NCBI GenBank assembly: GCA_000004695.1
Contig: CM000152.2
Span: forward strand, 704,001 to 768,000
Origin: Dictyostelium discoideum
Taxonomy: Eukaryota
Length of the DNA: 64,000 nt
Direction: 5' to 3'
In this document: positions 45,797-64,000 of the stretch, piece after piece
Layout: the number at the start of each line of letters is the position of its first letter
How positions within the stretch are numbered: the stretch's first letter is position 1
Position numbers and translations under genes: made by a program
Notes under the pieces: generated by a model
Databases searched by the model: none
The model's input: the letters and a program-made list of their open reading frames with translations, nothing else
Told to the model about the DNA's origin: nothing

Positions 45797-48376
45797 TTAT
45801 TTTTCATCAAACCAATGAAATAAATTAGTAATATCTATTATATTTTTTTTAAAATTAATTTCTTTAAGGATATAATTGATTACTTCAATAGTTCCATTCC
45901 TTGTTAATAGTAATGAAATGTTATTTGGGTAAGATTCTAAATTTGAAAAGAATGTTTTATAATTTTCATTAATAAATTTCAAAGCTTCCAAATCATTATA
46001 TTTTATAATATAACCAATCAATAATGATTTAAAATTTAAAATATTTTTTTCTGAGGAATGTTCTTGAAAAATATTGAATAAAAAATTTATTATAAATTTT
46101 AAACCTTCAATATCATGATACTTTACCACACTCTTGATTATATTGAAACCATTAAATGTAAATAATTTTATCAACATATTTTCTGAAAAAGCAATAATTG
46201 GATTATATAATAATAGTGATAGTTGATCACTGTAATAATAGTATTCCAATAATATTAAATTGTCTGATATAATAAGTTTACCAGAATCGATATCTTCTTT
46301 TCTATTTTCAAAAATCCATGCTAAAAATTCCAAGTTATCTTTGTATGAATATTGCTGATCATTTAGTTTAATTTCTAAAATTTTTAAAAATCTATCAAGT
46401 GTAATCAATTTATCCTCTCTTAAATTTGAAAAACCTTCTTTTTCAAATTGAATTCCCCAATAATTTAATGGGATGAAATTTTTAAAATCTTGTAGATTAT
46501 TAATTACAAATTTTGAAAACCAAAAACCTACATTCTTTTCAATGGGTGTAGGTAGATGATGACAACATTGATAATAGTCATTTGGGTATTTTAGTTTAAA
46601 ATGATTTAAAATATTTGTAGTGTCATAAGTTTTTTTAATTGAACTTTTTGAGTTCTTCAATAAATTTACAAAATTAAATGTTTCTTTTAATTGTTCACAT
46701 TGATAAAGTAAATCAAAAACGTTTGTATCTTGAATGAAAACTAAAGCATTGCCACAAATATTTAAAAATTCTTTGTAAATAGGGCCAATATTGATTGAGT
46801 GAACTATCATTTTTAATAACTCTATGTCACCATATGAAATTAGAGTTTCAAATATAACTTTAATACCTAGACCTTTTAAAGAATTACCTTGAGCAAATGG
46901 TAATAATGATGGTTGTTTATTATTATTATAATTAATATTATTATTATTATCATAACTATGAGTGATATCATTGATAAAAAGTTGAACAAATTCTTTTTTA
47001 ATAGTTGAATTACTTTTACAAAATTTAAATAAATTAATAGTTTGATGATGGATATTGGGTGAAGCTGGCCAATTATTTGAAACGAAGAGTTTATATGAAC
47101 CACAATTCAAAGCTAAATCATTTAAATACCTTTTATCCACATCTTTAAAGTCATTATTATATTTTGCTTTGTAAAGAGTTAAATTTTTACTTTTACCATG
47201 TCTACTAAATTCAATAACTAACTGTACCATATTTTTGATATCTTTTCTATTTATTTCAAAATCTTCAAATTGAGTTTTTAAATCCTGTTCATTGAATTTT
47301 TTTGAAATTTCATTTAATTCATTTTTAGATAAAATGCTAAATTTATCATTTTCTTCATTTGTAGTATCAAATGAATAAAACTCTTTTACCTCGATAATGG
47401 TTGAAATAAAATAAATTAAATAACAAACATCTAAAAAGAATTGAAGTGGCTTCATCTCAATTGAACAATCAAAAGTTGGAATAACTGATGTTGGTGGTCT
47501 TTGATTGTATATATTTGATATGTTTTGTTCTATAACTAAGTTTGATAAAAGTTTAAGGGATTTGATTTTATAGAAAGAAATAACTAAATCTGGAAAAAAA
47601 AATTTGTATCCATATGATTTATTTTGAAAACCAATTTCACGAAATATTGGTTCTGAAATTGGTGAATAAGGACATAAAACAAAATGTTCTGAAACTATTG
47701 TTAAAACATCTTGATAAATTAATTTGAATTTGAATTTGTTTGATAAATAGTTTGATATTTCAACTGAACCATATTTAATTGATAATAGATAATGATCAAA
47801 ATTAAAAATAACTTTATTTTTATAATTTTCATTCTTATCAACATCATCATCATCATAATCATCATTACCTCTATCTTCCCTTGTATTATCTTTATTCATC
47901 AATTGATGATAATAATTAAATTCTATTTCTAGTAAAGCAACTAAACAATCCATAATAATTATTGAATCAATTGTCATCTTCAATGTTAATGGTTTCTCAG
48001 TGAAATAAATTGAATAATTTTTAAAAAGATTATTATAAAATTCTTTATCAATAGTTTTATCCTTAAAGTAATTGAAAATTACTATACCTGGATTCTTTGC
48101 AAATAATAAATTTTTTTCTCGATTTTTTATTTTATCTCTTAAAAGTTCTTTATTATAAATGGCTAATTTATCAACATCTTTTCTTCCATAGTAATTATAT
48201 CTCTTATTTTCATTTTCTCGTTTTGAAATATCTTTAGATAATGTATATCTTTTACCCCTATATTTTGGTAATAAATCTTGGGTCCCTTTTAATTTTAAAA
48301 ACGAAATAATATTATTTCTTATATAAATATTACCCCAAATTTCTCTATAAAATATATTATCACTATTTCTTTTCAT
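45797..48376 (-). CDS. Large lineage-specific hypothetical protein (859 aa)
   Basis: Single uninterrupted minus-strand ORF. The Asn/Ile/Lys/Phe-rich composition is typical of dictyostelid orphan families. N-terminal motif NIFYREIWGNIYIRNNIISFLK. No conserved domain recognised. Confidence 0.55.
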   Translation of the reverse strand: MKRNSDNIFYREIWGNIYIRNNIISFLKLKGTQDLLPKYRGKRYTLSKDISKRENENKRYNYYGRKDVDKLAIYNKELLRDKIKNREKNLLFAKNPGIVIFNYFKDKTIDKEFYNNLFKNYSIYFTEKPLTLKMTIDSIIIMDCLVALLEIEFNYYHQLMNKDNTREDRGNDDYDDDDVDKNENYKNKVIFNFDHYLLSIKYGSVEISNYLSNKFKFKLIYQDVLTIVSEHFVLCPYSPISEPIFREIGFQNKSYGYKFFFPDLVISFYKIKSLKLLSNLVIEQNISNIYNQRPPTSVIPTFDCSIEMKPLQFFLDVCYLIYFISTIIEVKEFYSFDTTNEENDKFSILSKNELNEISKKFNEQDLKTQFEDFEINRKDIKNMVQLVIEFSRHGKSKNLTLYKAKYNNDFKDVDKRYLNDLALNCGSYKLFVSNNWPASPNIHHQTINLFKFCKSNSTIKKEFVQLFINDITHSYDNNNNINYNNNKQPSLLPFAQGNSLKGLGIKVIFETLISYGDIELLKMIVHSINIGPIYKEFLNICGNALVFIQDTNVFDLLYQCEQLKETFNFVNLLKNSKSSIKKTYDTTNILNHFKLKYPNDYYQCCHHLPTPIEKNVGFWFSKFVINNLQDFKNFIPLNYWGIQFEKEGFSNLREDKLITLDRFLKILEIKLNDQQYSYKDNLEFLAWIFENRKEDIDSGKLIISDNLILLEYYYYSDQLSLLLYNPIIAFSENMLIKLFTFNGFNIIKSVVKYHDIEGLKFIINFLFNIFQEHSSEKNILNFKSLLIGYIIKYNDLEALKFINENYKTFFSNLESYPNNISLLLTRNGTIEVINYILKEINFKKNIIDITNLFHWFDEK

Positions 48377-48444
48377 TTTTTTTTTTTTTTTTTGATTTAA
48401 AAAAAAAAAAAAAAAAAAAAATCTTATTTTATTTTATTTTAATT

Positions 48445-48475
<31 letters not shown>

Positions 48476-49134
48476 TATTTCCTTGTCATTGTTTTAAAAT
48501 AAAAAAATTACAAAAAAATGGATGATAAATTTAATTCCATATAAACTTTCTTTCTTTTTCAATTTTTGAAATCATTTTGTTTATTTTTTAGTTTTCTTTT
48601 TATCCACACCAGATTCACAAAAAACAAATAAAATTAAAAAAAAAAAAAATTAAAATAAAATAAAAAAATGAAATAAAAAAGAAACTAAAGAAAACTGTAA
48701 TCATTTTTCCTTCAAAACTATAATCATTTTTCTCTACAAATAATAGTTTGAAAAATATAATTTTGATATTTGGTCAGAATTTTGATTAAATTGATTTTTT
48801 GTAATGGTAATAAATTCCAAAAGAATTTCAGAAATCTTAATTGATCCCTATAAATATGGAGTAAATGTGTTGATTGGATACAATAAAGAACAAATTATTT
48901 TTTTAAAAGAATAATGATTAATTTCTTTTTTTTTTTTTTTTCTTTTTTTTTATTTTATTTTTTTGTTTTATTTTAATTTTTTTTTTTGGAAGGAAAAAAA
49001 AAAAAAAGGTTTAATTAAAAAAATGATGATTTATATATGTTATTTATTAAAAAAATTTGATTTATATTTTTTAAAAAAAAAACAAGGTGAATGAATGAAT
49101 TAATAAATGTTAGTGATAAAAAAAAAAAAAAAGA

Positions 49135-50301
49135 TTAAGATTTTAAAGATCTTGCAATTTTTGCGATTTTAACAATTAAATCTTTTTCAGGTATTTTATC
49201 AGTTGAAGAGACGGTAATATCTAGAATTGGAACTCTATAGTTATTATGACTTGGTAATAATTGTAGCATGAGATAGAAAAGACCATCCAAAGCGGATTCA
49301 CCAACAATGACAGCGGCATCTCTAAATTGGACTACTTTATTGTAAGTTTCACCATCGAAATTGGAAGGATGTGGAGAAGGACAAGTTTGTAAATGTTTGC
49401 CATTGGTATTGAATTTCTTTGAAGCATCGTGAATAGTTTCCCAACCCAATTTCAAATGTTCGATACATTGTAACTCTACATCCTTTTTAAAGTTTCTAAT
49501 TTTTTGACCCAATTCAATGCAATCCTTGAGCTCTTTAATCTCAGAGAAAGATTTAATTGAATCCAAGAAAGAGTAATATAAAACCTTTAAACATTTCAAA
49601 GTACGACTACGTAATTCAATCAGTTTAGTTAAATCCTCGGTATCTCTTTCCATCATTGTTATTTCAAATGTTGATGGTGATGATGAAAATAGATCACCTG
49701 GTGATGATGAAAGATTTAAATGATTATTCTTAATTTCAAATGATGATGCTGCTCTAATTGGTAATGGTCTATGACTATGTTGATTACCACCAATTGGTAA
49801 TTGTGGTGTAGATGATGATGATGTTGAACTTGAAATTGGTTTTGGTCTAGTTGGTGTTGTTATATTTAAATTAGATGATGATGAATTTGCTGTACTACTA
49901 TTTGGTATTATTACATTTCTAGATGGTGTATTTTGTTGTTGTTGTTGTTGTTGTTGTTGTGATTGTTGTTGTTTTGAAATTAATTGTGACATTTGTGAAA
50001 TTGATGATGAAACTGATGGATTTGATGTTGAAATAATTGAACCATTTAAATTATTACTGCTATTACTTGTTGGTAAAACTGGTAAAGGTCTATGACTATT
50101 ATATTTTTCTGGTGATGTTGCCTCTATATTATTATTATTATTATTATTACTATTTACATTATTATTTTCAATTGAAATTGGTTTTATAAATGATGAACCT
50201 GAAATTGTAACTGATCTTGATGGTACTGCACCACTCTTTTGTGTATCACTTAATGTAAGATCTGTCATTGCTCTACTTGTTTTTACTAATGTTTCATTTG
50301 A

Positions 50302-50357
<56 letters not shown>

Positions 50358-50632
50358 ATGTACTATCATTACTTGATGATAAAAAAGTTCTTAAAGGTAC
50401 AATTGGTTTAGAAGTTGGTGAAGTTGAAACTATATTTAAATTTGATTGTGTTGGAGTTGGTGGTTGATTTGGTGTTGATGATGACATTGTTAATGAAGAA
50501 TTTGAAGGTGATGATGAAAGTTGTTTATCTAATTGATTTTGTTGATATTGTTGTAAAAGTGAAGATGGTAATGAAAATGGTGGAATTGGTACGCCTGTAG
50601 CTTTTCTTGGTGTAGTTGGTGGTGATGGTGAC

Positions 50633-50680
<48 letters not shown>

Positions 50681-50903
50681 TGATGAGAACTTAAAACTGG
50701 TGCAGGTTGTTGATATTGTTGTTGTTGTTGTAATCTTGAGAATAAAAACGATCCACTATGTTTTAATGGTGGAGTTGTTTTACCTGGTGATGATGGCATT
50801 AATGATCCTGAACTAACATTATTTGCTGATTGTATTATTAAATTACTATTATTACTATTATTATTACTATTATTACTATTATAATTATTATTAATATTAT
50901 TAA

Positions 50904-50938
<35 letters not shown>

Positions 50939-52351
50939 GTATTAATTGGTGAAGTTGATGTTGAACTTGAACCAGAACTAGAACCATTATTATTAATAGT
51001 AGAAGGTGAAGATGATATTAAAGAAGAAGAAGAATCAATTGAAGATTGTACATTAAATAATGAATCAGTCATTGCATCTAAAAACTGTTCGATATTTTCA
51101 AAGTTTGGTCTTTTTGTATGATCACGATGAAAACAAGCTTCAATGATTTTTCTAAGATCACCTTCAATTTCTGGAGGGATCATTGGTGGTAAACCTTCCT
51201 CACGAACACGTGCCAATTCGAGGTAACCCAATTGATCATACTCTTGATAGGGTCTTTTATTAGTGAGAATTTCAATTAAACAAGCACCATAACTCCAAAC
51301 ATCAGCTGCTCTTGAGAACTTTTTCTGTGTGAAAACTTCTGGTGACATGTAAAGGAATGAACCTTCAACCGTTGGACCATAGAAAGAACGTGATGATGAT
51401 GTGGCCAACCCGAAATCTGCCAATTTAATTGAGACGGGCGCTTCTGGTGAGATAGAGACCACTAAAAAGTTTTGAGGCTTTAAATCCAAATGCAAAATCT
51501 CGTTTCTATGTAGAAAGCACATACCCTTTGCGATATCATTTGCCATCTTCAAACGGAGTTGTGGCGAGAAGGTGTAGTTTGGATTGTGGAGGTATTTATC
51601 CAAACTTCCACCCTCGATATACTCCAACACCAAACATTTGGGTGAAACGCAAAAACCAACAAAATGTACAATATTTGGATGATGTAATAACTCTTTATGC
51701 ATTTCCAACTCCTTTTCAAACTCACTACCATCAGAGAGTTCCGAGATGACTTTGACTGCCACTGAAAGACCCCTCCATTTTGCTTTGTAGATTGCACCGT
51801 ATCCACCGCCACCAATAACATTACCAATTTCCAACTCTTTGTAATCTAAAACCTGTGACATCTTTGAATCGATCTTTATCGTGAACAAATGTCTGCCACT
51901 ATTGGCAATATCCACTGCTATCAATTCTCTAACCCTTGTTGTGCATAAAACTACCATCTCTACCAATATCTCTACAGATTGTCCTTTCTTTATAACACCA
52001 CCACTTGGTGTAAATGTTAACTTTATATTTGGTGAATGAACTGGAATATTACAAAAATTAAATGTTGTTTTACCACTACCTGTTGAATTTATCTTTATCT
52101 TATCTTTTAATGTTACTCCAACTTTACATTTCTCTCCTTCTTTTAAATTAAAATCAAAATGATATTTTGAAAATTGAACTGAATATTTTGGTTGATCTTC
52201 ATCTAAAAATAATAATAATAATAAAATAAAAATAATAATAAAATAAAATAAAATAAAATAAAATAAAATAAAATAAAATAAAATAAAATAAAATAAAATA
52301 AAATAAAATAAAATAAAATAAAATAAAATAAAATAAAGGGATTAATATTAT

Positions 52352-52382
<31 letters not shown>

Positions 52383-53040
52383 GAAAAAAATGAAAGCACA
52401 TACTTGGAAAAATTGAGTGTCTCGCTCTATATTGTGATTTTGTTCTATCTTCAATAGTTTGTTCAAAAAATAATGTTTTCAATGATTCAATTTGTTTTCC
52501 TTCAATTATCCCACTGCAACCCCTATTAGATTTTGATTTTTGATTTTTTTTTTTTTATTGATTTTTTTGATTTTTTTTTTTTTATTGATTTTTTTGATTT
52601 TTTTTTTTGAAATTTTTTTTTTTTTTTTTGATAATTTTTTTTTGGGGGATTTTTATTTTAAAAAAAAAAAAAAACAGTTAAAATTTTTACGATATTGCGA
52701 TATTTTTTTATTTTGGTTTTTGTGATAAAAAAAAAAAAAAGTTTTGTTTGATAATAAAAAATTATGAAAAAAAAATAAAAAATTTATCACGAAAAAGAAA
52801 AAAAATGTGTGGGAATAATTCATATGAAGAAAGATAATAATATGTATAGTTTTATTTTTATTTTATTTAATGAGTGCGAGTGTGTGTGGGTTATCTTGTT
52901 ATTTAAAATGAAAAATAATTAGATTAAAAAAAAAAAAAAACTTACAATTTTAAAAGGTGGTGTAATTCTTCATCACAATCAGTATCTTGATCGATTTCAT
53001 TTGGATTGAACCAATCACCATCAGAACTTGTGTATATCAT
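49135..53040 (-). CDS. Protein kinase (TKL-like Ser/Thr/Tyr kinase) with N-terminal beta-rich domain, ~500-aa Ser/Asn/Gln/Pro-rich linker and conserved C-terminal domain; exons 52946..53040, 52404..52522, 49135..52202
   Basis: Kinase subdomains: [62 protein letters not shown]. In-frame coding continues upstream of the tracked ORF, which began at an internal TTG at 51966. Acceptor TTTTAG at 52203/4 (phase 1) pairs with the GTATGT donor at 52403. The exon-2 acceptor is TAATAG at 52523/4, and the GTAAGT donor of exon 1 (ATG 53038..53040, [18 protein letters not shown]...) is at 52945. Intron 2 contains (AAAAT)n. Confidence 0.7.
52241..52337. repeat. (AAAAT)n pentanucleotide repeat (~19 units) inside kinase-gene intron 2
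   Basis: aaaataaaat... runs 52241..52337 between the acceptor at 52203 and the donor at 52403. It appears as (FILFY)n in the ORF track. Confidence 0.9.
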
Positions 53041-53396
53041 TTATATTTGTATATATGTGATTTTATAAAATATATTTTTTTTTTTTCTTTTTGCTTTTTT
53101 TTTTTTTTTTTTTTCTTTTTTTTTTTTTTAATAAATAACGAACTTGATTTGATTAAATAAATAAATAACTATATTATAATGGCTATAATATTTAAAAAAT
53201 AATAAATGTAATGATTTGCGTGCTTTATGAATTTTTAAATATAAAAAATATTATATCTTTTATTGTGATTATTATATGATATTTTTTTTATTATTATTAT
53301 TATTGTTATTTTTTTTTTTTTTTTTTTTCAATTATAAATATGTGTGTATGTGGTGTGGGAGTTATTTGTGTGAAACAAATAATTTGAGAGTATGAG

Positions 53397-53455
<59 letters not shown>

Positions 53456-53457
53456 AT
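53397..53457. repeat. (AAAT)15 tetranucleotide repeat; nearby (GT)13 at 53721..53750
   Basis: Direct reading of the intergenic region upstream of the kinase gene. Confidence 0.85.
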
Positions 53458-53492
53458 AGTGTTCTATTGCAAAATCTGAGGTGCGAAGTTTG

Positions 53493-53528
<36 letters not shown>

Positions 53529-54300
53529 TTTTTTTTTTTTTTCAATTTTAAAAAAAAATAAAAAAATAAAATAAAATAAAAAATAATTGATAGGGTGTGG
53601 AGTTTTGTGTGAAGTTTTATTCTAATAAAAAGACTTTATTGCAATTTAAAAGGTCAAAAAAATTTTATTAGAACTTTTGAATTCGCTAAAAGTTGTTTAT
53701 TTATGTATGTATGTATGTGGTTTGGTACAGTGTGTGTGTGTGTGTGTGTGTTGGTTGTGGTGGTATATTTAGTTGAAAAAATAATAAAAGTTAAAAATAA
53801 TAATCTATTTTTTGTGTATGAGGACCTTATGTGAACCTTTTTTTTTTTTTTTATTTTTTTTATTTTTTTTATTTTTTTTTAGTTTGATTTTTTTTTTTTT
53901 TGTTATTTCTTTTTTTTTTTATTATTTTATGTCTAATGATATAGTGCAAACCAAGTTAAAAAAATAAAAAAAAAAAAAAAAAAAAATAAAATAAATTTTT
54001 TTTTTTTTTTTTTTTCGAAATTTTGTGGAGAGCGTTAAATAAATTCAATAGTGTTGGTGCCAAAAATATAAAAAAAAAAAAAAAAAAATTTGATAATCGA
54101 GATCCCAATTCCACAAAATACGAATTGCCACTTAAACTCCCCGTCAAAAAAAGAAAAAAAAAGAAAAAAAAACAAAACAAAACCAGAACAATATGTCTAC
54201 AATGCTAAAAAAAAAAAGAAAAAAAAAAAAAAATAAATAAATAAAAAAAAAAATAATAATAATAATAATGATAAAAAAGGAAAAAAAAAATAAATAATAT

Positions 54301-54333
<33 letters not shown>

Positions 54334-54527
54334 TGATCCATTGGTTGTGATAAATTCGTTACAGTGCGTTATGATAAATATAAAACTTCGAGGTTGATTG
54401 TATGGTTTGATGACAAAAAAATATTAGAAAAACTTTTCGAACCACAAGAAGATAATGATTTAATAAAACAATTGGATCAATTGACTCTTATGTAACTTTA
54501 AATAATGTGTAAATAAAAAAAAGACTT

Positions 54528-54652
54528 ATTTTTTTAAGTCAATACCACTTTTTTTATTTTTTAATTTTTTAATTTTTTAATTTTTTAATTTTTTTAAGTC
54601 AATACCACTTTTTTTATTTTTTTATTTTTTAATTTTTTAATTTTTAAAATTC
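54528..54652. repeat. Tandem duplication of a ~67-bp unit (TTTAAGTCAATACCACTTTTTTTATTTTTTAATTTTTTAATTTTTTAATTTT) directly upstream of the 54682 ORF
   Basis: Two near-identical copies begin at about 54528 and 54595, differing by a few T-run lengths. Confidence 0.8.
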
Positions 54653-54681
54653 ATAAATCATAGATATAAATAAATTTAAAC

Positions 54682-55224
54682 ATGAATAATACAGGTAATC
54701 GTCTCGATTTAAACATGAATAATACAGGTAATCGTCTCGACATGGATGGTTCAAGGACTCCAGTAACACGTGGTAAAGCAAAAAAGAATAGCATTAATGC
54801 TTACCTGATAATAATAATCATGCTTTCGTTATTATCAGCTTTCTTAGTCCAACATTCTATGAATTTAAACAAACAACTTCAACAACAAACAACCAAGACA
54901 AATGACTTTGCATACGAGCTTTTAACACTATTGATCTCGAAACACACCAACGACATATCAGGTAACGATAACAATGTTCATAGTGGCAGTGGGGATATTA
55001 ATATACAAAATATGATAGATGAAATTGCAAATGAAAACACGAGAAAGATTTTACTGGATGCAATAAACAGTGGTAATTTATCTGGGTTAAAAGCAGCAAT
55101 TTCAAAAGCCAATGGTCAAGTTAAACACACTGTCGATAAGGCTGTTCATCAAGTTGGAAATGTTGCTAATAAAGCAGGAAAACAATTAGAAAAAGAAGTA
55201 AAGAGATTTTTCAAGAGATTTTAA
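54682..55224 (+). CDS. Hypothetical single-pass membrane protein (180 aa)
   Basis: ORF with an in-frame direct duplication at the N-terminus (MNNTGNRLDLN-MNNTGNRLDM). TM segment AYLIIIIMLSLLSAFLV. C-terminus GNVANKAGKQLEKEVKRFFKRF. No family recognised. Confidence 0.4.
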   Translation: MNNTGNRLDLNMNNTGNRLDMDGSRTPVTRGKAKKNSINAYLIIIIMLSLLSAFLVQHSMNLNKQLQQQTTKTNDFAYELLTLLISKHTNDISGNDNNVHSGSGDINIQNMIDEIANENTRKILLDAINSGNLSGLKAAISKANGQVKHTVDKAVHQVGNVANKAGKQLEKEVKRFFKRF

Positions 55225-55460
55225 AAAGTAATAACAATACAAATAAAAATAATATTAAAACATAAACAGTCTTTGTATTTTGTAACATTAAACTCTTATA
55301 TCAATTGTTGTAGGGAATTTTATTATTTAATTTCACTACAGTAGCGCAGTGAAAAAAAAAATCACTGACCCTAAATTTTTTTTTATTCAAAAAACAAATA
55401 AAGTTTATTATTTTTTTGTTTTTAATTATTAATTCCTATTTTAATGGTTAATTATTATTA

Positions 55461-55513
<53 letters not shown>

Positions 55514-55849
55514 TCTCATTTTTTTCATTTTTGTTTTTCATTTTTTTTTTATTTTCATATTTTCAATTTTAGGACAACAAATTATCAAACAAACATTAAA
55601 GAAATCTAAAACTTCAGAATATTTATCATTTGAAAATAATTTAATTTAAAAGAAATGTGAAGAGTTTATATTATTTGTTATTAATGAATTACCAAAATTA
55701 AAATACTTAATTGGGTATTAATTTCAAAAGATGAAAGAACAAAAGCAGCAAAATTAGATAGTGAAGGTTTCTTTCAAAACAATTCTAAGTGTTACTCCAG
55801 TTGTTATCAATAATAAAAAATAAATAATAATAATAATGTGATATCATCA

Positions 55850-56890
55850 GCTCAATCTTCACCATCATTAAGTAGTGCATCAACACCAATTCCAACTCCA
55901 TTAAATACTAGTAGTAATAATATTGGTGGTAATACTACTACAAGTGTATCAGTTGGATAATCCCCAACAATCAGGGGTATACCATCATCACCAGATCAAC
56001 AAGTTTTATTCAACGCAAACCATCAGTCAGTGCAATATGATGCCAAAATTAAATTCTTCTTTGAATTGATCAACTGATTTCCTTGGTAAAGAAAGAGAAA
56101 ATCATCAATCAGCTTCATCTTCACCTTCATCTTCATCATTATCAATATCATCATCATCACAACAACAACAACATAATAGTAACAATCATCCAAAATCGTT
56201 TGATGAAGCACCTGAAGTATTATCACCATTTGATATTTTAGAATTAAAAGTTAATGCAGAGAATTCTTTATCTTCATCACAAGATTTAAATCAACACAAT
56301 GTAACAACGGCTAGTCAAATTTTACAAGAAATTAAACCAACTAAAGAATTAACTAAACAAGAAACTGAAGCATGCAATTCCAGAGGAACCAATTGAAGAA
56401 TGTAATAAATCACTACAACCACTGCAATTAAGATCATCTTCTTCATCTTCTTCATCTTTTTCAACAACAACAAAAACAACAACATCACCACCACCACAAC
56501 AACAACAATTAGATTCGCCATTACCATTACCAGTTACTATTATTAATATGCCAATGGATGATGATGAACTTATTAGTGATGGTACAATAAGTGGTGCTTA
56601 AACTAATGATGGTATCAATTATTGTACCATCATTAGTTAAAGAATCATCAAGAGAATCATTATTGGCTACAACTATTGATAATTCAACATTATCAACTAC
56701 ACCATCACCATCTCCAAAATTACCAACTCTTGAAAGTGTTGTAACTGCTAAACCATTGTTACATCATCATCTTCTTCTTCTTCAACCACCACTACTCAAA
56801 CTAATAAAGAAATTTGGACTAAAATTGATCAAAATACTGCACCATCAACTCCATCTATAATTTTACCAAAAAGATTACCTTCTCAATCAA
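55850..56890 (+). pseudogene. Decayed Ser/Thr/Gln-rich ORF (frameshifts and in-frame stops) inside the TIR element
   Basis: Three plus-strand frames each carry 60-110-codon coding-like stretches (..SAQSSPSLSSASTPIPTPLNTSSNN.. / ..GKERENHQSASSSPSSSSLSISSSSQQQQHNSNNHPKSFDEAPEVLSPFDILELKVNAENS.. / ..[55 protein letters not shown]..). They are interrupted by stops and frame changes, with antisense ORFs overlapping. Confidence 0.4.
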
Positions 56891-56897
56891 ATCTTAA

Positions 56898-57005
<108 letters not shown>

Positions 57006-57419
57006 ATAATAATTAATTAAATAAATAAACAAAAAGAATAAATAAATAAAAACAATAAATAAAAAAAAAGATAATAAAATAAAACTACAATCTTAATTGA
57101 AAAAAAAAAAAAATAAAATAAATAAATAAAATAAATAAATAAAATAAAACTAGTTTTAATAAATCTAAAACTTTGTAAATATGTTTTGAAAAAAAAAAAA
57201 AAAATTTTATTTTATTGTTTAACTAAATTTGGTTTAAAATTCAAATAAAGAACTATCTACTCTAAAAAAGAGACCCTTTTCAAATGATAATTGTTGAACA
57301 CCATTTCTGCAATCACTACCGTCATGAGTAGAAAATTACCATTTAAACTAAATTGAATAAATCCACTTGATAACCTGTTGGAATTAGCTACTTGTTTTTT
57401 AATTATTATTTATTGTTTA

Positions 57420-57520
57420 TTTGTTTATTTGTCTATTTATTTATTCATTTATTTATTCATTTATTTATTCATTTATTTATTCATTTATTTATTCATTTAT
57501 TTATTCATTTATATTCATTC
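57420..57520. repeat. 12-bp minisatellite (TCATTTATTTAT)n, ~8 units, inside the TIR element
   Basis: ttattcatttatttattcatttatttattcattt... 57436..57515, with degenerate units either side. Confidence 0.8.
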
Positions 57521-57602
57521 ACTAATAATATATTACCTATTTTAAAATTGAAAAAATGAAAATGAAAAAAAAAAAAAAAAAAAATTGAAAAAAAAAAAAT
57601 TG

Positions 57603-57636
<34 letters not shown>

Positions 57637-57842
57637 TACCAATAATAATTATAATAATAATAAATAAAATAATAATTAAAACAAAAAATAAAATTACAAT
57701 TTAATAAACTTTATTTGTTTTTTGAAAAAAAAAAAATTTAAGGTCAGTGATTTTTTTTTTTTCACTGCGCTACTGTAGTGAAATTAAATAATAAAATTCA
57801 CTACGCTGTAGTGAAATTTTATTGAAAATTCCCTACAACATC

Positions 57843-58730
57843 AATGTCACAATGTAATTGCTTTGTAAATGTTTTTACACTGCAGTAGTGATGCTGCAAA
57901 AAAAAGGGTAAGACCAAGCGATTATAAATATATCCCAGAACACTCTAGAAACGATATTGCAAATATTTTAGAAAGAGCTATAGCATCAGAAGAGGAAAAT
58001 CTCGAAAAAATCGAAAAAACAAAAGAAAGACTTTCACGCGCAAGGAAGGAAATTGAAGATCTTAACGCCAGAAATGAAAGTATTCAAGAATTAATTTCAG
58101 AAAATGACAAAAATTTAAAGAATACAAAAGAAGAAATTGAACGTTTAAAAAAAGAAAAAGATGAATTAAAAAAAGCAAAGGGAGAATTCGAAGCTTCTTT
58201 AAAAGAAATTGAAGTAAAAACAGCTTTCTTGGAGGATGTTAGTCAACATATCTTCAAAGAAGCACTCCGAGATCCAGCAGTGATGTGGGGTAAATTAACT
58301 TATGGAGGTGTGATCCCAACTAGCGAAGAAAACAGACAATTTTATTTAAATCTTGTCCAACATTTCGAAAAGAAAAATTATAGAATTTCCGAACTCAGAG
58401 AAGAATTGGAGTCTTTTCCAATTAATAAATTATTGGAAAAACTCCATATTGGTGATTCCAAAACAGAAGAAACAACCGATTGCATTGTCCCAGAGTCATC
58501 TGCTATAGTGCCACCACAACCAATAACTCCAACCACACCAATTATTACCGAGTTCGAAAAAGACAATTAATAAGTAACAAAATAAACTAACCACTTAGGG
58601 TTTTAAATTTTTTTTAGAGTGGTTTAAAATATCTCTTGTATTAATATTAATATCGTAAATGTAATTGCATTGTAAATGCAGTGTAAAATTTTACACTGTG
58701 TAGTGACGCTCAAAAAAAAAGTAAAAAAAG
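57843..58730. repeat. Pair of ~60-bp direct repeats (57847..57905 and 58655..58722) bracketing the coiled-coil ORF
   Basis: AATGTAATTGC(T/A)TTGTAAATG...TTTTACACTG(C/T)(A/G)TAGTGA(T/C)GCT.CAAAAAAAA(A)G occurs in both copies. The second copy has the perfect palindrome CAGTGTAAAATTTTACACTG. The CACTGCAGTAGTG core resembles the CACTACAGTAGCG sub-repeat of the neighbouring TIRs. Confidence 0.6.
57869..58570 (+). CDS. Coiled-coil ORF (233 aa) flanked by ~60-bp direct repeats, adjacent to the TIR element
   Basis: Intact ORF with E/K-rich heptad-like stretches (EENLEKIEKTKERLSRARKEIEDLNARNESIQELISENDKNLKNTKEEIERLKKEKDELKKAKGEFEASLKEIE). The first ~15 codons lie inside the upstream direct repeat, so the true start is uncertain. 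Confidence 0.35.
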   Translation: MFLHCSSDAAKKRVRPSDYKYIPEHSRNDIANILERAIASEEENLEKIEKTKERLSRARKEIEDLNARNESIQELISENDKNLKNTKEEIERLKKEKDELKKAKGEFEASLKEIEVKTAFLEDVSQHIFKEALRDPAVMWGKLTYGGVIPTSEENRQFYLNLVQHFEKKNYRISELREELESFPINKLLEKLHIGDSKTEETTDCIVPESSAIVPPQPITPTTPIITEFEKDN

Positions 58731-59062
58731 TTGAATTTTTTTTGATAAAATCATGAGATATTTTTGATAAAAATCAAATTGTGGAAAATTTATGCTCTAA
58801 AATATATAAAAACAAGAATGCCAAACAGTGATCCAAGTTTATGTTATAATTGTTCATCCATTTGTGAACACACTCAAACTTTCTCGAGCCGTGGTGTAGA
58901 TGTAGATCGTTGTCTTAATTTCAAAACCAATTACAACAAAAATTATTACAACAAAAAGTAATCAACATAATGCTGAATAACAACACCAACAAAAATAGAT
59001 TCAAAATCAAACAAACAAAATCAAAACCAATCATTATAAATAAAACTACTCTTATATAATAC

Positions 59063-59105
<43 letters not shown>

Positions 59106-59243
59106 TAAAATTAAAATTGGAAAATGATAAGTTTTTTAATTTTACATTTCGATATTTTTTATATTGTTTTTATTTTTTTTGATTTGTCAAAATGCCCAAA
59201 ATAATTAAAATCTGAATTAATATAATAATTGATTTGATTTTAG

Positions 59244-59274
<31 letters not shown>

Positions 59275-60058
59275 ATAATAACAATAGAATTGATTTGTGG
59301 TAATTCAACAAATTTTACAATAAAACCAATTATTCTTTTGGACCATAAATAGCTTAATTATAATATTTATTTAAATTAATATTTATTATATATATATATA
59401 TTTCAACTTTTGATTCTGGAAATACAACTTGGGCAATAAAAGAAATTAATAAAAATATGATATCCAGAAAAACAAGAAAATAAACAAAACCAAGTATTCA
59501 GTGAAAAGGATTTTATACAATTATTTAATTCCTGTAATAATATGAAGTTGTTTCTTGTGAATCTATTTCATTTTTTTTTTTTTTTTTTAAGTATTTATTT
59601 AAGTTTTCTACAAGATAAAATGGTGTCAATGTTCTGTCTTGAATGCTTCAAAAAAATAATAAAAAAAAAATAGGTTAGTTTATTTTTTGAATTTAATAAT
59701 TTATCATTCATTTTTTGTAATTGTTTTTGAAGAACAACCAGAGAGAATATATCTTTAATAAAAAAAAAAAAACCAAAAAAATTTGAATGTGAGTTTATTT
59801 TTTACAGCGGAAGACACAACAGATAATATGGAAAAATTAAAAAAAAAATTGAAAATTAGTCAATAGATATTAAAATTTTAAGGTGTGCCCAAGCAACTGG
59901 AGCTCTACTTGCGGTTAATCTATTATTATTTTTTATTTCTCCAACTTTTTTTGATGGGGGGTCATTTTGCCTCCAAAAATATTATTATTTTACTTTTAAT
60001 AAAAAAAAAAACATTTGAGACACAAAAGATATTTTATTTTTTTATTTTTTAATTTAAT

Positions 60059-60090
<32 letters not shown>

Positions 60091-60187
60091 TGGCATTATT
60101 TAATTAAATTAAATAGTTGAGTGATTTTTGAGTTGAATCCATTTTATTTTATAAAAAAACCAACAATATTTAACAAAGATTAAAAAC

Positions 60188-60600
60188 CAAACTTTTTTAA
60201 TGAAATGGATGAGAAGGAGAGTAAGAATTTTCAGAGACATTGGTTTTCTCAATGGATCAATAACCAAATATTGAAACTAGTTATTTATAGGTAATAAAAA
60301 TGTTTTAATAGATAGAATTATGATAAAATTGGAAGTTGACAATGGTGGAGGATGGAATTACAATTCATCAAATACCCAAATTTACATTGAGTGATGATAG
60401 CTTTATAAAATTAGAGATTTTTGAATTTGTTAAAAACAACGCCCAATCATTGATTTCACCCGACCTAAATTAATTCAATCGATGAGGATTTAGTTGCTTA
60501 TGATGGGAATTATGCTTCTATTATATATTTACCTTCAAAACCAAATAAAAAATTCAGTTTTGGAGAGTTGGATTTCCTAGAAAATCAATATCCATAGCTG
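60188..60600 (+). pseudogene. Decayed ORF fragments (MDEKESKNFQRHWFSQWINNQILKLVIY..., then frame-shifted pieces)
   Basis: ATG-initiated 29-codon ORF followed by coding-like stretches in the other two frames (HCPKFTLSDDSFIKLEIFEFVKNNAQSLISPDLN / NSIDEDLVAYDGNYASIIYLPSKPNKKFSFGELDFLENQYP). The N-terminal motif F-x-R-x-W-F-x-x-W-I-N-N-x-I-L resembles the N-terminus of the 45797..48376 product (FYREIWGNIYIRNNIISFL). Confidence 0.25.
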
Positions 60601-61368
60601 TAATACTTTAAGATGGATACTTACAAAAGAAAAAAAAAAAAAAAAAAAAAAAATTTAAGAATAAATGATTCTAAATTATTCAGTGTCATTACTTTAAAGT
60701 TAAATTTGGATAATTAAAATTTTTTTTTAAAAAAAACAAATAAAATAATCAAGCTTTAAATGAATTGTTTTTTTTTGATTTAAAAAAAAAAAAAAATAAA
60801 AAATAATAAAAAATAATAAAAAAAAAGTATACTATTTAATTTATTTGTACAAATATATTTTTTTTTATTTTATTTTTTTATTTTTTATTTTTTTTTCAAA
60901 AAAATAAATAAAATAAATAAATGAAAATAAAGACCTTTATAATTATTTAAATTCATTTTTTAATATTTTTTACCATTTTGTGGTTGTTTGGGGTTATAAT
61001 TAAAAAAAAAAAAAATAACTTATAAAATTTTTATTTTGTGGTTATTTTTAAAATTTTATTTATAAAAAAAAAAATAAATAAATTCTAAAAATAACCAAAA
61101 AATAAAAATTATAAAACTTAATTAAGTTAATAAATTCTAAAAATAACCACAAAATAAGAATTTAATAAATCAATTTTTTTTTTTTATTTATTAAAAAAAA
61201 AACAATCAAAAAAAAACCAATTTTTTTTTTTATTTATTTTTTCTATTTTTTTATAACACAACTTCACCAACATTCTTGGATGGTAAATAAAAAAAAAAAT
61301 ATAAATGGAATATTATAAAATTTTTAAAAAATAAATAACGAAGATAAAAAAAGTTTGTTTAATTGGTT

Positions 61369-61401
<33 letters not shown>

Positions 61402-61817
61402 TTTTTTTAGCCACCAACATTTTCGTTTATTATTACTACAAAATCCAAGTAATATAATTAATATGTAAATTATATTTTTAATTTTAGAAATTGCTGGTTT
61501 TTCATTTCCTCAAGAAAAAGGTAATTATTATTATTTTTTTTTTTATATTTATAAATTTATTTAAATATAAAAAAAATCACATTAATTTAACACATTTAAT
61601 TTTTTTTTAAATTTAAATTTAGTAATTAAGTTAACCATTGATAAAATTTCCAAGTGGTGACTCTTCATTAGTTGCAGTTGGTTCCTCACAACAAAATTAG
61701 TATCTTTTAGGTAGTATTCAAGTTTGATCATATATATATATGGATTATTCCAAGTAATATATACAATTAACAATATTGTTTAATGTAATTAACTTTTCAA
61801 CCTATATAATGATCGTT

Positions 61818-62025
61818 AGTACACTTTTGTGAAGAAATAATTTTTTTACATTGATGTTACCAATGCTAACAATTATTAATGTTTTGTATATTTGAGATGA
61901 TAATCACCAGTAATTAAACCATATTTAACTTTTGGTATCATCTCAAATAAACAATTCATTAAAAATTGTTAACATTCGAAAACATCAATGTAAAAATGTT
62001 ATTTCCTCTCAAAAGTGTTCTAGCC
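61818..62025. repeat. ~210-bp near-perfect palindrome (long hairpin / MITE-like)
   Basis: Left arm GTACACTTTTGTGAAGAAATAATTTTTTTACATTGATGTTACCAATGCTAACAATTATTAATGTTTTGTATATTTGAGATGATA pairs with right arm TATCATCTCAAATAAACAATTCATTAAAAATTGTTAACATTCGAAAACATCAATGTAAAAATGTTATTTCCTCTCAAAAGTGTTCTAG. The centre CACCAGTAATTAAACCATATTTAACTTTTGG sits at about 61920, and there are only ~10 mismatches across ~95-bp arms. Confidence 0.7.
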
Positions 62026-62300
62026 ATCCTTTTATAAGTTTAAAAGTTAATTATAAATAAATGGTATTGTAATTGATAATAAATTATTATTTTCATTTCT
62101 CATCAATTCTACCACCACCACCACAAGCAAACACAAGCACTGCTATCTGAAAATCAAATTGGAAAATTACCAACTTAAAAAAAAAAAAAAAAAAAAAATA
62201 AAAATAATAAGCTAAATAAAAAATATTTAAATTTTTAAAGATATAAAAAAAAAAAATGGAATATATCTGGATTTTTTTTTTTTAAATTTAATTTTTAATT

Positions 62301-63048
62301 TTATTCAATGAATTCATCCAACTTATCGTTGTCGATAGGCTCTTCATCTTCTTCTTCTTCTTTCTCAACTTCTTGAACTTCAGATTCAATATTATTATAA
62401 TTTGAATCTTCATCATCTTCATTGTCATCATCATTATTATTATTATTAATATTATTATTATTATTATCAGCATGATTTTCACTTTGTTGTTGAACATCTA
62501 AACTATTTAAAATTTCTTCATCATCTTCCAATTTATTTAATTCATCCTCTTTGGTAATGATTACAACTTTTTTATTACGTTTTCTACTTTTTTGTTTTTC
62601 ATTTTCATCAATCATAATTTCATCATCATCATTATCATCACCATCACCTTGAGTATCTTTTTGTTGTGTTTTATCATTGTCATTATTTTCATTTTCATTT
62701 TCATTTTCATTTTCATTTTCATTTTCATTTTCATTTTCATTTTGATTTTCCACCTCTTCATCATCATCATCATCTTCAATTTCATCACTTGGTCTATCAG
62801 CTTTATTATAATAAAATTGTTTATTTGCTGGAATATAATGTGCAAATGAATAATCTGTTGAGAAAGAACTTGGATTCATTGAATAAGTACCATCAGCACG
62901 TGAATGCTCATATTGATTTGATTTATCACCAATTACCAATAAATCTGGTAATGGATAAACAGACATTGCATGATCATAATTCCAATAAATTGGTTTATCT
63001 TCTAATGTTAAATTACATAAATGTGAATTACTACAAATTAATTCAATT

Positions 63049-63097
<49 letters not shown>

Positions 63098-64000
63098 CAA
63101 AAAATTGGTAAATAATAAATAATAAATAAATTAATAATAAATTAATAATTATTTTTTAAAACTTACATGTTGAGAAATATCACATGATTGTGAAGGTTCT
63201 AAAATACAATGTCTTCTCATTTTATTTGTTAAATCATCTCTAAATATTATAATTTCTTGAGAACAGTATCTAATTCTACATGGATTAGTTGTAAAGGTTG
63301 ATTTTGGAATTAAAGAAATGAAATCCTTTATGAAAACATTTGAAATTGGGAACTTTGGTAAAATATTTAATAAGGAACCAGTTGGGTCAGTTGGACCAGG
63401 TACGAAAATGAATTGAGTGAATTGATGTATATTTGGATACTTTTGAATTACCATTGCAAGTTGATTAAAATACTTTTTCAATTGATATTGTGTACCATTG
63501 ATCAAAGGATGCTCAGTGAAATTACCCATCAATATCATTGCAAATGGTGGACAATCTTTATAACCACCAAATAAATAATCTAATCTTTCCATAACCCTTT
63601 CCGAATCTAACCAAACATCTGATAGAAATAATATTGAATTATCCTCTTTCTCTTTTTCATACTTTATCAATTGTTCCATCGTCTTTTTTTGTGGTCTTTC
63701 TCCAAACATATCAATATTTTGTAAAAATTTTAATGTTTCACATCTTTCTTCAGTTGGTGGTAATTGAATTTTCTTTTTTTTTTTTTTTTTTCATTAAAAA
63801 TATATATATATATATTAATATTATTTATTATTCAATTATTTATTGCTATTTATTTATAAACTTACATCAGCAATGAAAACACCATCAATAAATTCACCAG
63901 ATGCTTGAATGATTGAATTTATAGTGACTATACCAAATTCGAATTTAGCTTTTGAAATATCAATTTTAACATTTGTATTTAAATCTTCTATATAGAATTG
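62301..64000 (-). CDS. DNA polymerase epsilon subunit 2 (POLE2/Dpb2), 3' portion; exons 63866..>64000 (5' part outside window), 63167..63772, 62301..63050
   Basis: Colinear with human POLE2: [10 protein letters not shown]...[61 protein letters not shown], then [24 protein letters not shown]. Phase-0 GTAAGT donors at 63865 and 63166; acceptors AAAAAG ending 63773 and AAAAAG ending 63051. Intron 63051..63166 carries a 46-nt poly-T run. Long acidic (NE)n/Asp-rich C-terminal extension. Confidence 0.85.

Follow-up and report, generated by a model that had tools for sequence, protein, structure and literature searches.

Direct repeats around the orphan gene DDB_G0278363 of Dictyostelium discoideum and an adjacent Tdd-like element

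The gene DDB_G0278363 of Dictyostelium discoideum is located in a 64-kb window of chromosome 3 (A+T = 78%), which is the whole stretch of DNA that was analyzed and to which all positions refer unless another locus is named. The start of the gene is part of an upstream direct repeat, R1, and a downstream direct repeat, R2, follows behind the gene (R stands for either copy). An element with terminal inverted repeats (TIRs) ends directly upstream of R1. Known comparators of this TIR element are Tdd-4 as well as Tdd-5, two transposons from D. discoideum (Ginger2/TDD) that possess TGTNR...YNACA termini, a 5-bp target duplication, and TIRs of 260 to 297 bp (PMC2836005). The TIR element of the window resembles them in its TGTNR termini (TGTTG...CAACA), its 5-bp target-site duplication (TSD), its long TIRs (~100 nt near-perfect and ~350 nt overall, compared to the published 260 to 297 bp), and its occurrence in multiple copies in D. 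discoideum. It differs from them in that the window copy encodes no integrase-like transposase and that its interior is frameshifted. The element is designated “Tdd-like, non-autonomous” here, which refers to the termini, the TSD, and the TIR length and not to the TIR sequence, and membership in the family is not claimed.

The two repeats can be compared with a partial (5′-end) tandem gene duplicate or stub. In agreement with such a duplicate, copies of the promoter-proximal and start region are present in the same orientation and one gene length apart, with the ATG and the leader as the shared landmark; the second copy is non-functional, a putative fold-back scar is located inside one copy, and other small duplications occur nearby. 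Different from such a duplicate, no gene body and no residual likeness to it survive after R2, so that one would have to assume either a further deletion or that the copied tract was unusually short. We give about an even chance to the account that R represents the 5′ boundary of the gene itself, doubled by one local duplication that left R2 as a dead stub, and that the Tdd-type TIR element was inserted later.

Direct repeats R1 and R2 and the gene between them

The features of the gene and of the two repeats are as follows.

57851..57906, + strand: core of R1; the extended copy comprises 57846-57914 and probably also 55293-55305 beyond the TIR insertion
57869..58570, + strand: open reading frame (ORF) of 233 codons, DDB_G0278363 / Q54Y87 / XP_642315.1 / EAL68354.1, intact, 702 bp
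57878..57890, no strand: 13-mer CACTGCAGTAGTG in R1, the only member of its 13-mer class outside the TIRs
58581..58586, + strand: AATAAA, 11 nt past the ORF stop, a likely poly(A) signal (sequence read directly)
58658..58721, + strand: core of R2; the extended copy comprises 58636-58728 and begins ~50 to 70 nt past the AATAAA of the ORF
58676..58756, + strand: stub frame of 26 codons, MQCKILHCVVTLKKKVKKVEFFLIKS followed by a stop, opened by the ATG copy of R2
58679..58698, no strand: 20-nt perfect palindrome CAGTGTAAAATTTTACACTG, in R2 only
58694-58705, no strand: R2 counterpart of the 13-mer, CACTGTGTAGTG, one base shorter and outside the TIR motif class

Two direct repeats of ~60 bp had been proposed in the initial annotation of this DNA; they are real and somewhat longer. 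A repeat search of the window revealed one block at 57851-57871 and 58658-58678 with 20 of 21 identical positions and a second block at 57885-57906 and 58700-58721 in the same order. Both were merged by a gapped local alignment into one collinear repeat (57851-57906 versus 58658-58721) with a score of 57, while 690 windows elsewhere in this sequence had a mean of 18.8 (standard deviation 2.9) and a maximum of 46, this maximum being due to A-runs. R1 and R2 are ~88% identical, have the same orientation at an offset of 807 to 815 bp, and differ by three to four indels, including one 9-nt insertion in the middle of the repeat. A 21-mer with up to three mismatches was found in a scan of the window at R1 and R2 only. 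When an nhmmer profile built from R1 and R2 was run over the window and the loci L001, L005, L006, and L007, the two copies were returned with E = 7e-20 and 8e-21. The next match with E = 0.19 was the palindrome of R2 on the opposite strand, and outside both repeats none was better than E = 7. In a genome with this A+T content, low-complexity matches are common, and a chance likeness of two blocks might be considered, but the alignment and nhmmer statistics exclude a chance origin of the repeat, and the restriction of the 21-mer to these two places also speaks against it.

No third copy of R was found in ~110 kb of D. discoideum DNA, which is the 64-kb window plus L005 and L006, two further D. 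discoideum loci of together 46 kb (retrieved via the conceptual translation of the interior of the TIR element), the genome having a size of 34 Mb. The 21-mer of R yielded three chance matches only in the Joint Genome Institute (JGI) metagenomes, with unrelated flanks of 36 to 47% GC, and R had zero matches in bacterial and archaeal genomes.

The edges of the repeat are sharp, and the flanks outside R are unrelated. At the 3′ side, the likeness continues past the A-run into GTAA (57914 and 58728). At the 5′ side, it reaches through ATATYAATRTC to CTCTT, which for R1 corresponds to 13 nt located beyond the TIR element (55293-55305), and R1 probably extends across the TIR insertion up to CTCTT..ATATYAAT. 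The extended R1 spans positions −23 to +46 relative to the ATG and starts 6 to 11 bp beyond the right end of the TIR element. Codons 1 to 15 of the ORF, with the ATG at 57869, fall within it, and so do an 18-nt leader and a TATA-like stretch. The R1 alignment thus bears out that the first 15 codons are located within the repeat, as initially annotated, and that the start of the gene is supplied by it: R1 holds the only usable start codon. A TAA stop codon is located directly 5′ of this ATG, and the next in-frame methionine is codon 139.

With the TIR element subtracted, both R cores start 86 to 87 nt downstream of the stop that ends the previous ORF (55224 to 57851 and 58570 to 58658). The two spacers from stop codon to R core exhibit no significant likeness (p = 0.26), and their equal length is treated as a coincidence, though an unexplained one.

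A perfect palindrome had been assigned to both repeats. It exists in R2, but R1 is without the 9 nt CAGTGTAAA (58679-58687) of its left part. Their reverse complement follows next to them as TTTACACTG (58690-58698), which means that the sole large indel between R1 and R2 is an inverted copy of the neighboring 9 nt. The palindrome of R2 is an inverted micro-duplication of 9 nt, typical of the kind of scar left by fold-back or template-switch repair. The stub frame of R2 resembles the N terminus of the ORF in its DNA but not in its peptide, since from LHC to KKK the reading frame is displaced by two 1-nt indels. This loss of peptide likeness indicates that R1 and R2 are related at the level of DNA, as for a dead copy.

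The intact ORF of 702 bp was recovered as annotated, and its product matches the hypothetical protein DDB_G0278363 of D. discoideum AX4 with 100% identity. It possesses a basic N terminus (KKRVRP) and a C-terminal tail rich in proline and threonine. The product had been regarded as a coiled-coil protein. AlphaFold, run on the single sequence with no alignment, predicted one long helix at residues 24 to 134 and a remainder of low confidence. Pfam yielded generic coiled-coil matches only, all of them sub-threshold. A word-indexed search of 5.8e9 proteins and a full phmmer search against 1.84e9 cluster representatives both returned the ORF itself and no homologue, and no match to the sequences of the PDB was found. 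As far as these sequence comparisons reach, the ORF is a strict orphan, single-copy and species-specific, and without a paralogue.

In 1,000 shuffles of the region, the longest open frame had 174 codons, with a mean of 73. The GC content of the ORF by codon position (0.45/0.31/0.23) is native, and its preferred codons AAA, GAA, ATT, TTA, and AGA are those of the neighboring genes. The ORF is a genuine gene and not a chance frame. The native codon-position GC content and the preferred codons also make a recent foreign origin unlikely. Its transcription, which the initial annotation had put up for a check by transcriptome sequencing, is documented: DDB_G0278363 is listed once, among up-regulated genes, in the developmental RNA-seq data of Rosengarten et al. 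2015 (PMC4403905, Additional file 7), in the suspension_UP sheet and in the category UP_Hr08_gradual, the latter being assigned by column position. It is missing from the supplements of one life-cycle proteome paper and one cell-type RNA-seq paper. Because the AATAAA sequence 11 nt after the stop codon precedes R2, R2 probably lies outside the mRNA of the ORF.

The TIR element and its likeness to R1

The TIR element and its target-site duplications occupy the following positions.

55301..55305, no strand: TSD TCAAT, left copy, 5 bp, perfect
55306..57840, no strand: non-autonomous TIR element with the ends TGTTGTAGGG.../...CCCTACAACA, given as context and located outside the repeat unit
57841..57845, no strand: TSD TCAAT, right copy, between the TIR end and R1

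The two TIRs (~55310-55657 and 57458-57804) are 78% identical over ~350 nt and ~96% over the terminal 100 nt, and the terminal sequence TGTTGTAGGGAATTT occurs in the window only at the two TIR ends. The interior is multiply frameshifted, low-complexity, pseudo-coding DNA with no long ORF. No integrase-like transposase was found in it; an autonomous partner was not searched for. Its conceptual translation matched two hypothetical D. discoideum proteins from other loci, which are without Pfam domains. One stretch of L005 (9914-11577) is 91 to 97% identical to the interior, and further TIR ends of the family are located at L005 11577, L005 14925, L006 803, and L006 15672. The flanks of these four family ends are unrelated, without R and without ORF-like DNA. 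The TSD pair TCAAT/TCAAT was seen in one copy only, that of the window. The TIR motif had no match in viral contigs.

The initial annotation had related a motif in both repeats to a sub-repeat of the TIRs. This holds for R1, which carries the 13-mer, but not for R2 with its counterpart that is one base shorter. The 13-mer class CACTRCAGTAGYG has three members in 64 kb (left TIR, 55334; right TIR, 57768; R1, 57878), compared to 0.04 expected, but beyond the 13-mer and the A-run, the likeness between R and the TIRs is marginal. With uniform scoring, the alignments between R and the TIRs were within the background. With a composition-aware matrix, R1 aligned to 41 nt of the subterminal region of the TIR (motif, A-run, and GACC) with 22.0 bits, which was rank 1 of 7,262 windows in 110 kb, while four unrelated places reached 21.0 to 21.7 bits and R2 was not above the background. 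The R1-TIR alignment scored 22.0 bits on the + strand versus 16.7 on the − strand, which means that R is oriented like the left TIR. In all six family TIR ends that were aligned, the A-run is immediately preceded by AGTG, and TCAC..ACCCTAAATTTT is likewise invariant. R1 keeps neither of them and resembles only a private GTAG variant of the TIR copy in the window. Judged from these alignments, the core shared by R and the TIRs is at most weak evidence of relatedness and certainly not a conserved motif of the family. The link between R and the transposon consists of adjacency and a short, weakly significant motif.

Three observations concern the TIR family as such. The left TIR (55306-55345), compared to the right one (57760-57840), is without the outermost sub-repeat of ~36 to 40 nt between TGT and TGTAGGGAATTTT, which is present in the right TIR and in most family members; this deletion falls between two similar GTAG(G/T)GAATTTT units. 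The D. discoideum microRNA (miRNA) sequences miRNA_can_D3-5p/3p (TATGGCTGCTGAAATTAAT...; PMC4894637, Table 2) have match clusters with 0 to 2 mismatches at L005 8026-8175 and 9471-9554, adjoining a left-truncated copy of the TIR element of the window, and there are none in the window itself. Sequences of the thug-S-associated miRNAs are likewise not present in the window.

Possible origins of the repeat

If R is the 5′ boundary of the gene, doubled by a local duplication, its unit would comprise the TATA-like AT stretch and a short leader as well as the ATG with codons 1 to 15, which is host DNA and no transposon end. The doubling may have occurred by tandem duplication of the ~0.8-kb gene unit and subsequent deletion of the second body. 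Alternatively, the 5′ end of ~80 to 95 bp alone may have been copied to just past the poly(A) site during template-switch or break repair, with template switching, for instance, between the AT-rich and A-run microhomologies at the edges of R. R2 is positioned just downstream of the AATAAA of the gene, where the next tandem unit would begin. Small duplications are also present nearby, a 30-bp tandem repeat at 54682 that doubles MNNTGNRLD and two copies of TTTTTTAAGTCAATACCAC... at 54530 and 54593 (~64-bp spacing, 54530-54627). R1 would have remained the working copy that gives the ORF its only start codon, while R2 would have decayed, with its frame closing after 26 codons and the 9-nt inverted micro-duplication creating the palindrome.

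A Tdd-type non-autonomous TIR element (integrase-like, 5-bp TSD) would later have entered R1 at its 5′ edge, leaving 28 bp between the element and the ATG. The allele before this insertion, without the 2.5-kb TIR element, would read CTCTTATATCAATGTCACAATG. The R-like sequence (CTCTT..ATATCAAT) continues beyond the insertion, and the TIR element has its own TSD, which suggests that R1 predates the insertion. The divergence of ~12% between R1 and R2 compared to 3 to 9% among the copies of the TIR family would fit an older duplication of R. Only the TIR element is enclosed by the TSD, and the transposed unit therefore did not include R1, the ORF, or R2. As a consequence of an insertion 28 bp upstream of the ATG, the present upstream sequence of the gene is transposon DNA. 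Homologous recombination between R1 and R2, as direct repeats with ~88% identity, could delete the gene.

Several points weigh against this account. Comparison of the body of the ORF with the DNA after R2 (58723-62300; tblastn and sensitive blastn) yielded low-complexity matches only. With nothing of the body left, the tandem version needs an extra deletion, and the version with R alone would be an unusual copy over a distance of 0.8 kb. The extension of R1 over the TIR insertion comprises 13 nt only, in AT-rich DNA. The best local match of R1 in all examined DNA is the subterminal part of the adjacent TIR, which a purely host origin does not predict. The copy number of R refers to ~110 kb of 34 Mb and would allow R to be a dispersed family with as many as a few hundred members. 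If R proved to be dispersed, TIR-related, and flanking different cargos, the interest of the locus would rise considerably. The finding is real but fairly ordinary, on the favored account a partial local duplication around an expressed orphan gene that was later struck by a Tdd-like transposon. It reveals no new kind of mobile element or mechanism. The locus is a small case of a compact AT-rich genome remodeling the edges of a lineage-specific gene. It is a candidate presence/absence polymorphism and convenient for comparing D. discoideum isolates with regard to the gain or loss of orphan genes and the turnover of their promoters.

Instead of a doubled gene start, the repeat may have been produced by an insertion with duplication of the flank, which is conceivable but unlikely. 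A 0.73-kb segment with the ORF would have been captured at a site with a single R, leaving R at both sides like attL and attR or like a very long target duplication, either as filler DNA when a double-strand break was repaired or through the single-crossover integration of a small DNA circle that carried a stretch homologous to R. The sharp ends of the repeat with nothing in common beyond R, the orphan ORF without a source copy, the inverted micro-duplication of R2 as a break-repair scar, and the short palindromic cores of the recombinase type in R would agree with this. On the other hand, the ORF runs in frame out of R1 and its codon usage is native, which would require capture of an old or host-derived segment. 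The inner boundaries, read directly, are without a poly(A) tail, TIR, or other insertion signature, and there is no recombinase nearby. An att-flanked cassette similarly has one gene between two copies of a site with short palindromes; at this locus, however, there is no recombinase gene, the repeats are long and 12% diverged, and the site overlaps the start of the coding region. We know of no other such cassettes.

That R is transposon-related, as a relic or variant of a subterminal repeat or transposase-binding site of the Tdd family, is rather doubtful. R would be a dispersed member or an attractor of the TIR element, and the start of the gene would be borrowed. The confinement of the 13-mer class to both TIRs and R1 and the top rank of the composition-aware R1-TIR alignment point in this direction, as does the fact that R begins with TGTAA.. 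and that the TIR element was inserted within ~10 bp; the weak nhmmer matches of the R profile also include the TIRs of the window and of L005. These indications have to be set against the uniform-scoring result, the four unrelated places that score nearly as high, the background level of R2, the loss of the family-invariant TIR positions, the missing terminal TGTTGTAGGG in R, and the other family copies without an adjacent R. An extended version, which regards R as a recombination or transposase-binding site related to the subterminal repeat of Tdd-type TIRs, R1-ORF-R2 as a captured single-gene cassette, and the TIR insertion as targeted by the shared motif, is very improbable. If it were true, transposon-derived sequence would have provided a young expressed orphan gene with its start codon and made it mobile or excisable in the genome. 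It is also improbable, though less so, that R is a cis-regulatory module under selection, a core promoter or factor-binding site with R1 driving DDB_G0278363 and R2 an unannotated transcript. A likeness limited to a short, sharp-edged block between unrelated flanks would be expected for such a module, and R2 is located in a gene-free stretch of 3.7 kb with coding-like fragments and a strong hairpin, where transcription is possible. But the copies differ by indels that include the 9-nt insertion in the middle of the repeat, no gene is called after R2, the frame of R2 itself is dead, no third copy was found, and the Rfam covariance models, with Dictyostelium class I RNAs and snoRNAs among them, had no match at E <= 1 in 54000-60500.

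Some other known systems were rejected. The initial annotation had suggested a composite element, with the TIR element and the adjacent gene as a passenger being mobilized together. Composite or gene-capturing transposons (bacterial composite transposons, Pack-MULEs, and transduplication) resemble the locus in that one intact gene immediately adjoins a TIR element and that the TIR and the gene flanks have a short motif in common. Here, however, the TSD TCAAT encloses the TIR element alone and no TCAAT follows after R2. R1 and R2 are direct repeats in the orientation of the left TIR, do not contain the terminal TGTTGTAGGG, and cannot act as an opposing end, so that a composite from the left TIR to R2 has no proper right end. 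The family copies at the four other ends in L005 and L006 do not repeat the architecture, being without R and the ORF, and the ORF is single-copy and has no paralogue. TSD, orientation, and the other family copies are thus all against the composite element. Long terminal repeat (LTR) elements and terminal-repeat retrotransposons in miniature (TRIMs) share with the locus direct repeats around ~0.7 kb, and TG...CA is readable in R (TGTAATTG...GCTGCA). The repeats here have only 60 to 90 bp, the likeness exceeds the TG..CA limits, and the element would be single-copy. The LTR/TRIM reading was rejected because there is no TSD (CACAA versus AAAAA) and, when the sequence was read directly, R1 was not followed by a tRNA-complementary primer-binding site nor R2 preceded by a polypurine tract. 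A tRNA-related reading was rejected since there is no tRNA gene within the window.

Other features of the neighborhood

In a second D. discoideum assembly, GCA_054883475.1 (CM142509.1), the corresponding DNA is 99.6% identical to 47842-64000 of the window. The annotation of this assembly contains a gene for 474 amino acids (L001 6819-9146, which is 54682-57009 of the window) that reaches from the ATG of an upstream 180-codon ORF into the pseudo-coding interior of the TIR element. This gene model is probably chimeric and spliced across the end of the transposon. A comparison of synteny in another strain by means of the neighboring 859-amino-acid protein returned a match in the same assembly only. 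The syntenic interval around the locus runs from a kinase gene at 49135-53040 to a gene that starts at 62286; a spliced kinase of 1,093 amino acids was reconstructed.

The 180-codon ORF itself (54682-55224) has a coding-like composition (GC 0.33) and a hydrophobic segment, and its first 30 bp are the tandemly doubled ones (MNNTGNRLD twice). It has no homologue at E <= 0.001 and no exact record, and it is unrelated to DDB_G0278363. It has the appearance of another orphan gene, immediately upstream of the R1 locus.

Downstream of DDB_G0278363, 3.7 kb (58570-62286) are without a called gene, which is long for the D. discoideum genome. This stretch contains coding-like but stop-ridden pieces, e.g., at 58818-58961 with a cysteine-rich frame of 48 codons and at ~60300-60600, which may be pseudogene debris. 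It also contains an intergenic, near-perfect hairpin of ~268 nt at 61786-62053. The arms of this hairpin (61786-61858/61981-62053 and 61857-61902/61936-61981) are each 85% complementary, and the RNA has a minimum free energy of −98.6 kcal/mol with z = −17.2 versus shuffles. It is a candidate for a foldback element, similar to a miniature inverted-repeat transposable element (MITE), or for a precursor of a miRNA (pri-miRNA) or of small interfering RNAs (siRNAs). The 11-mer AACATCAATGT (57837-57847), which reaches from the TIR end across the TSD into 2 nt of the flank, recurs in both arms (61848-61858 and 61981-61991). The ungapped match comprises 20 of 26 nt with E ~1 and is probably due to chance.

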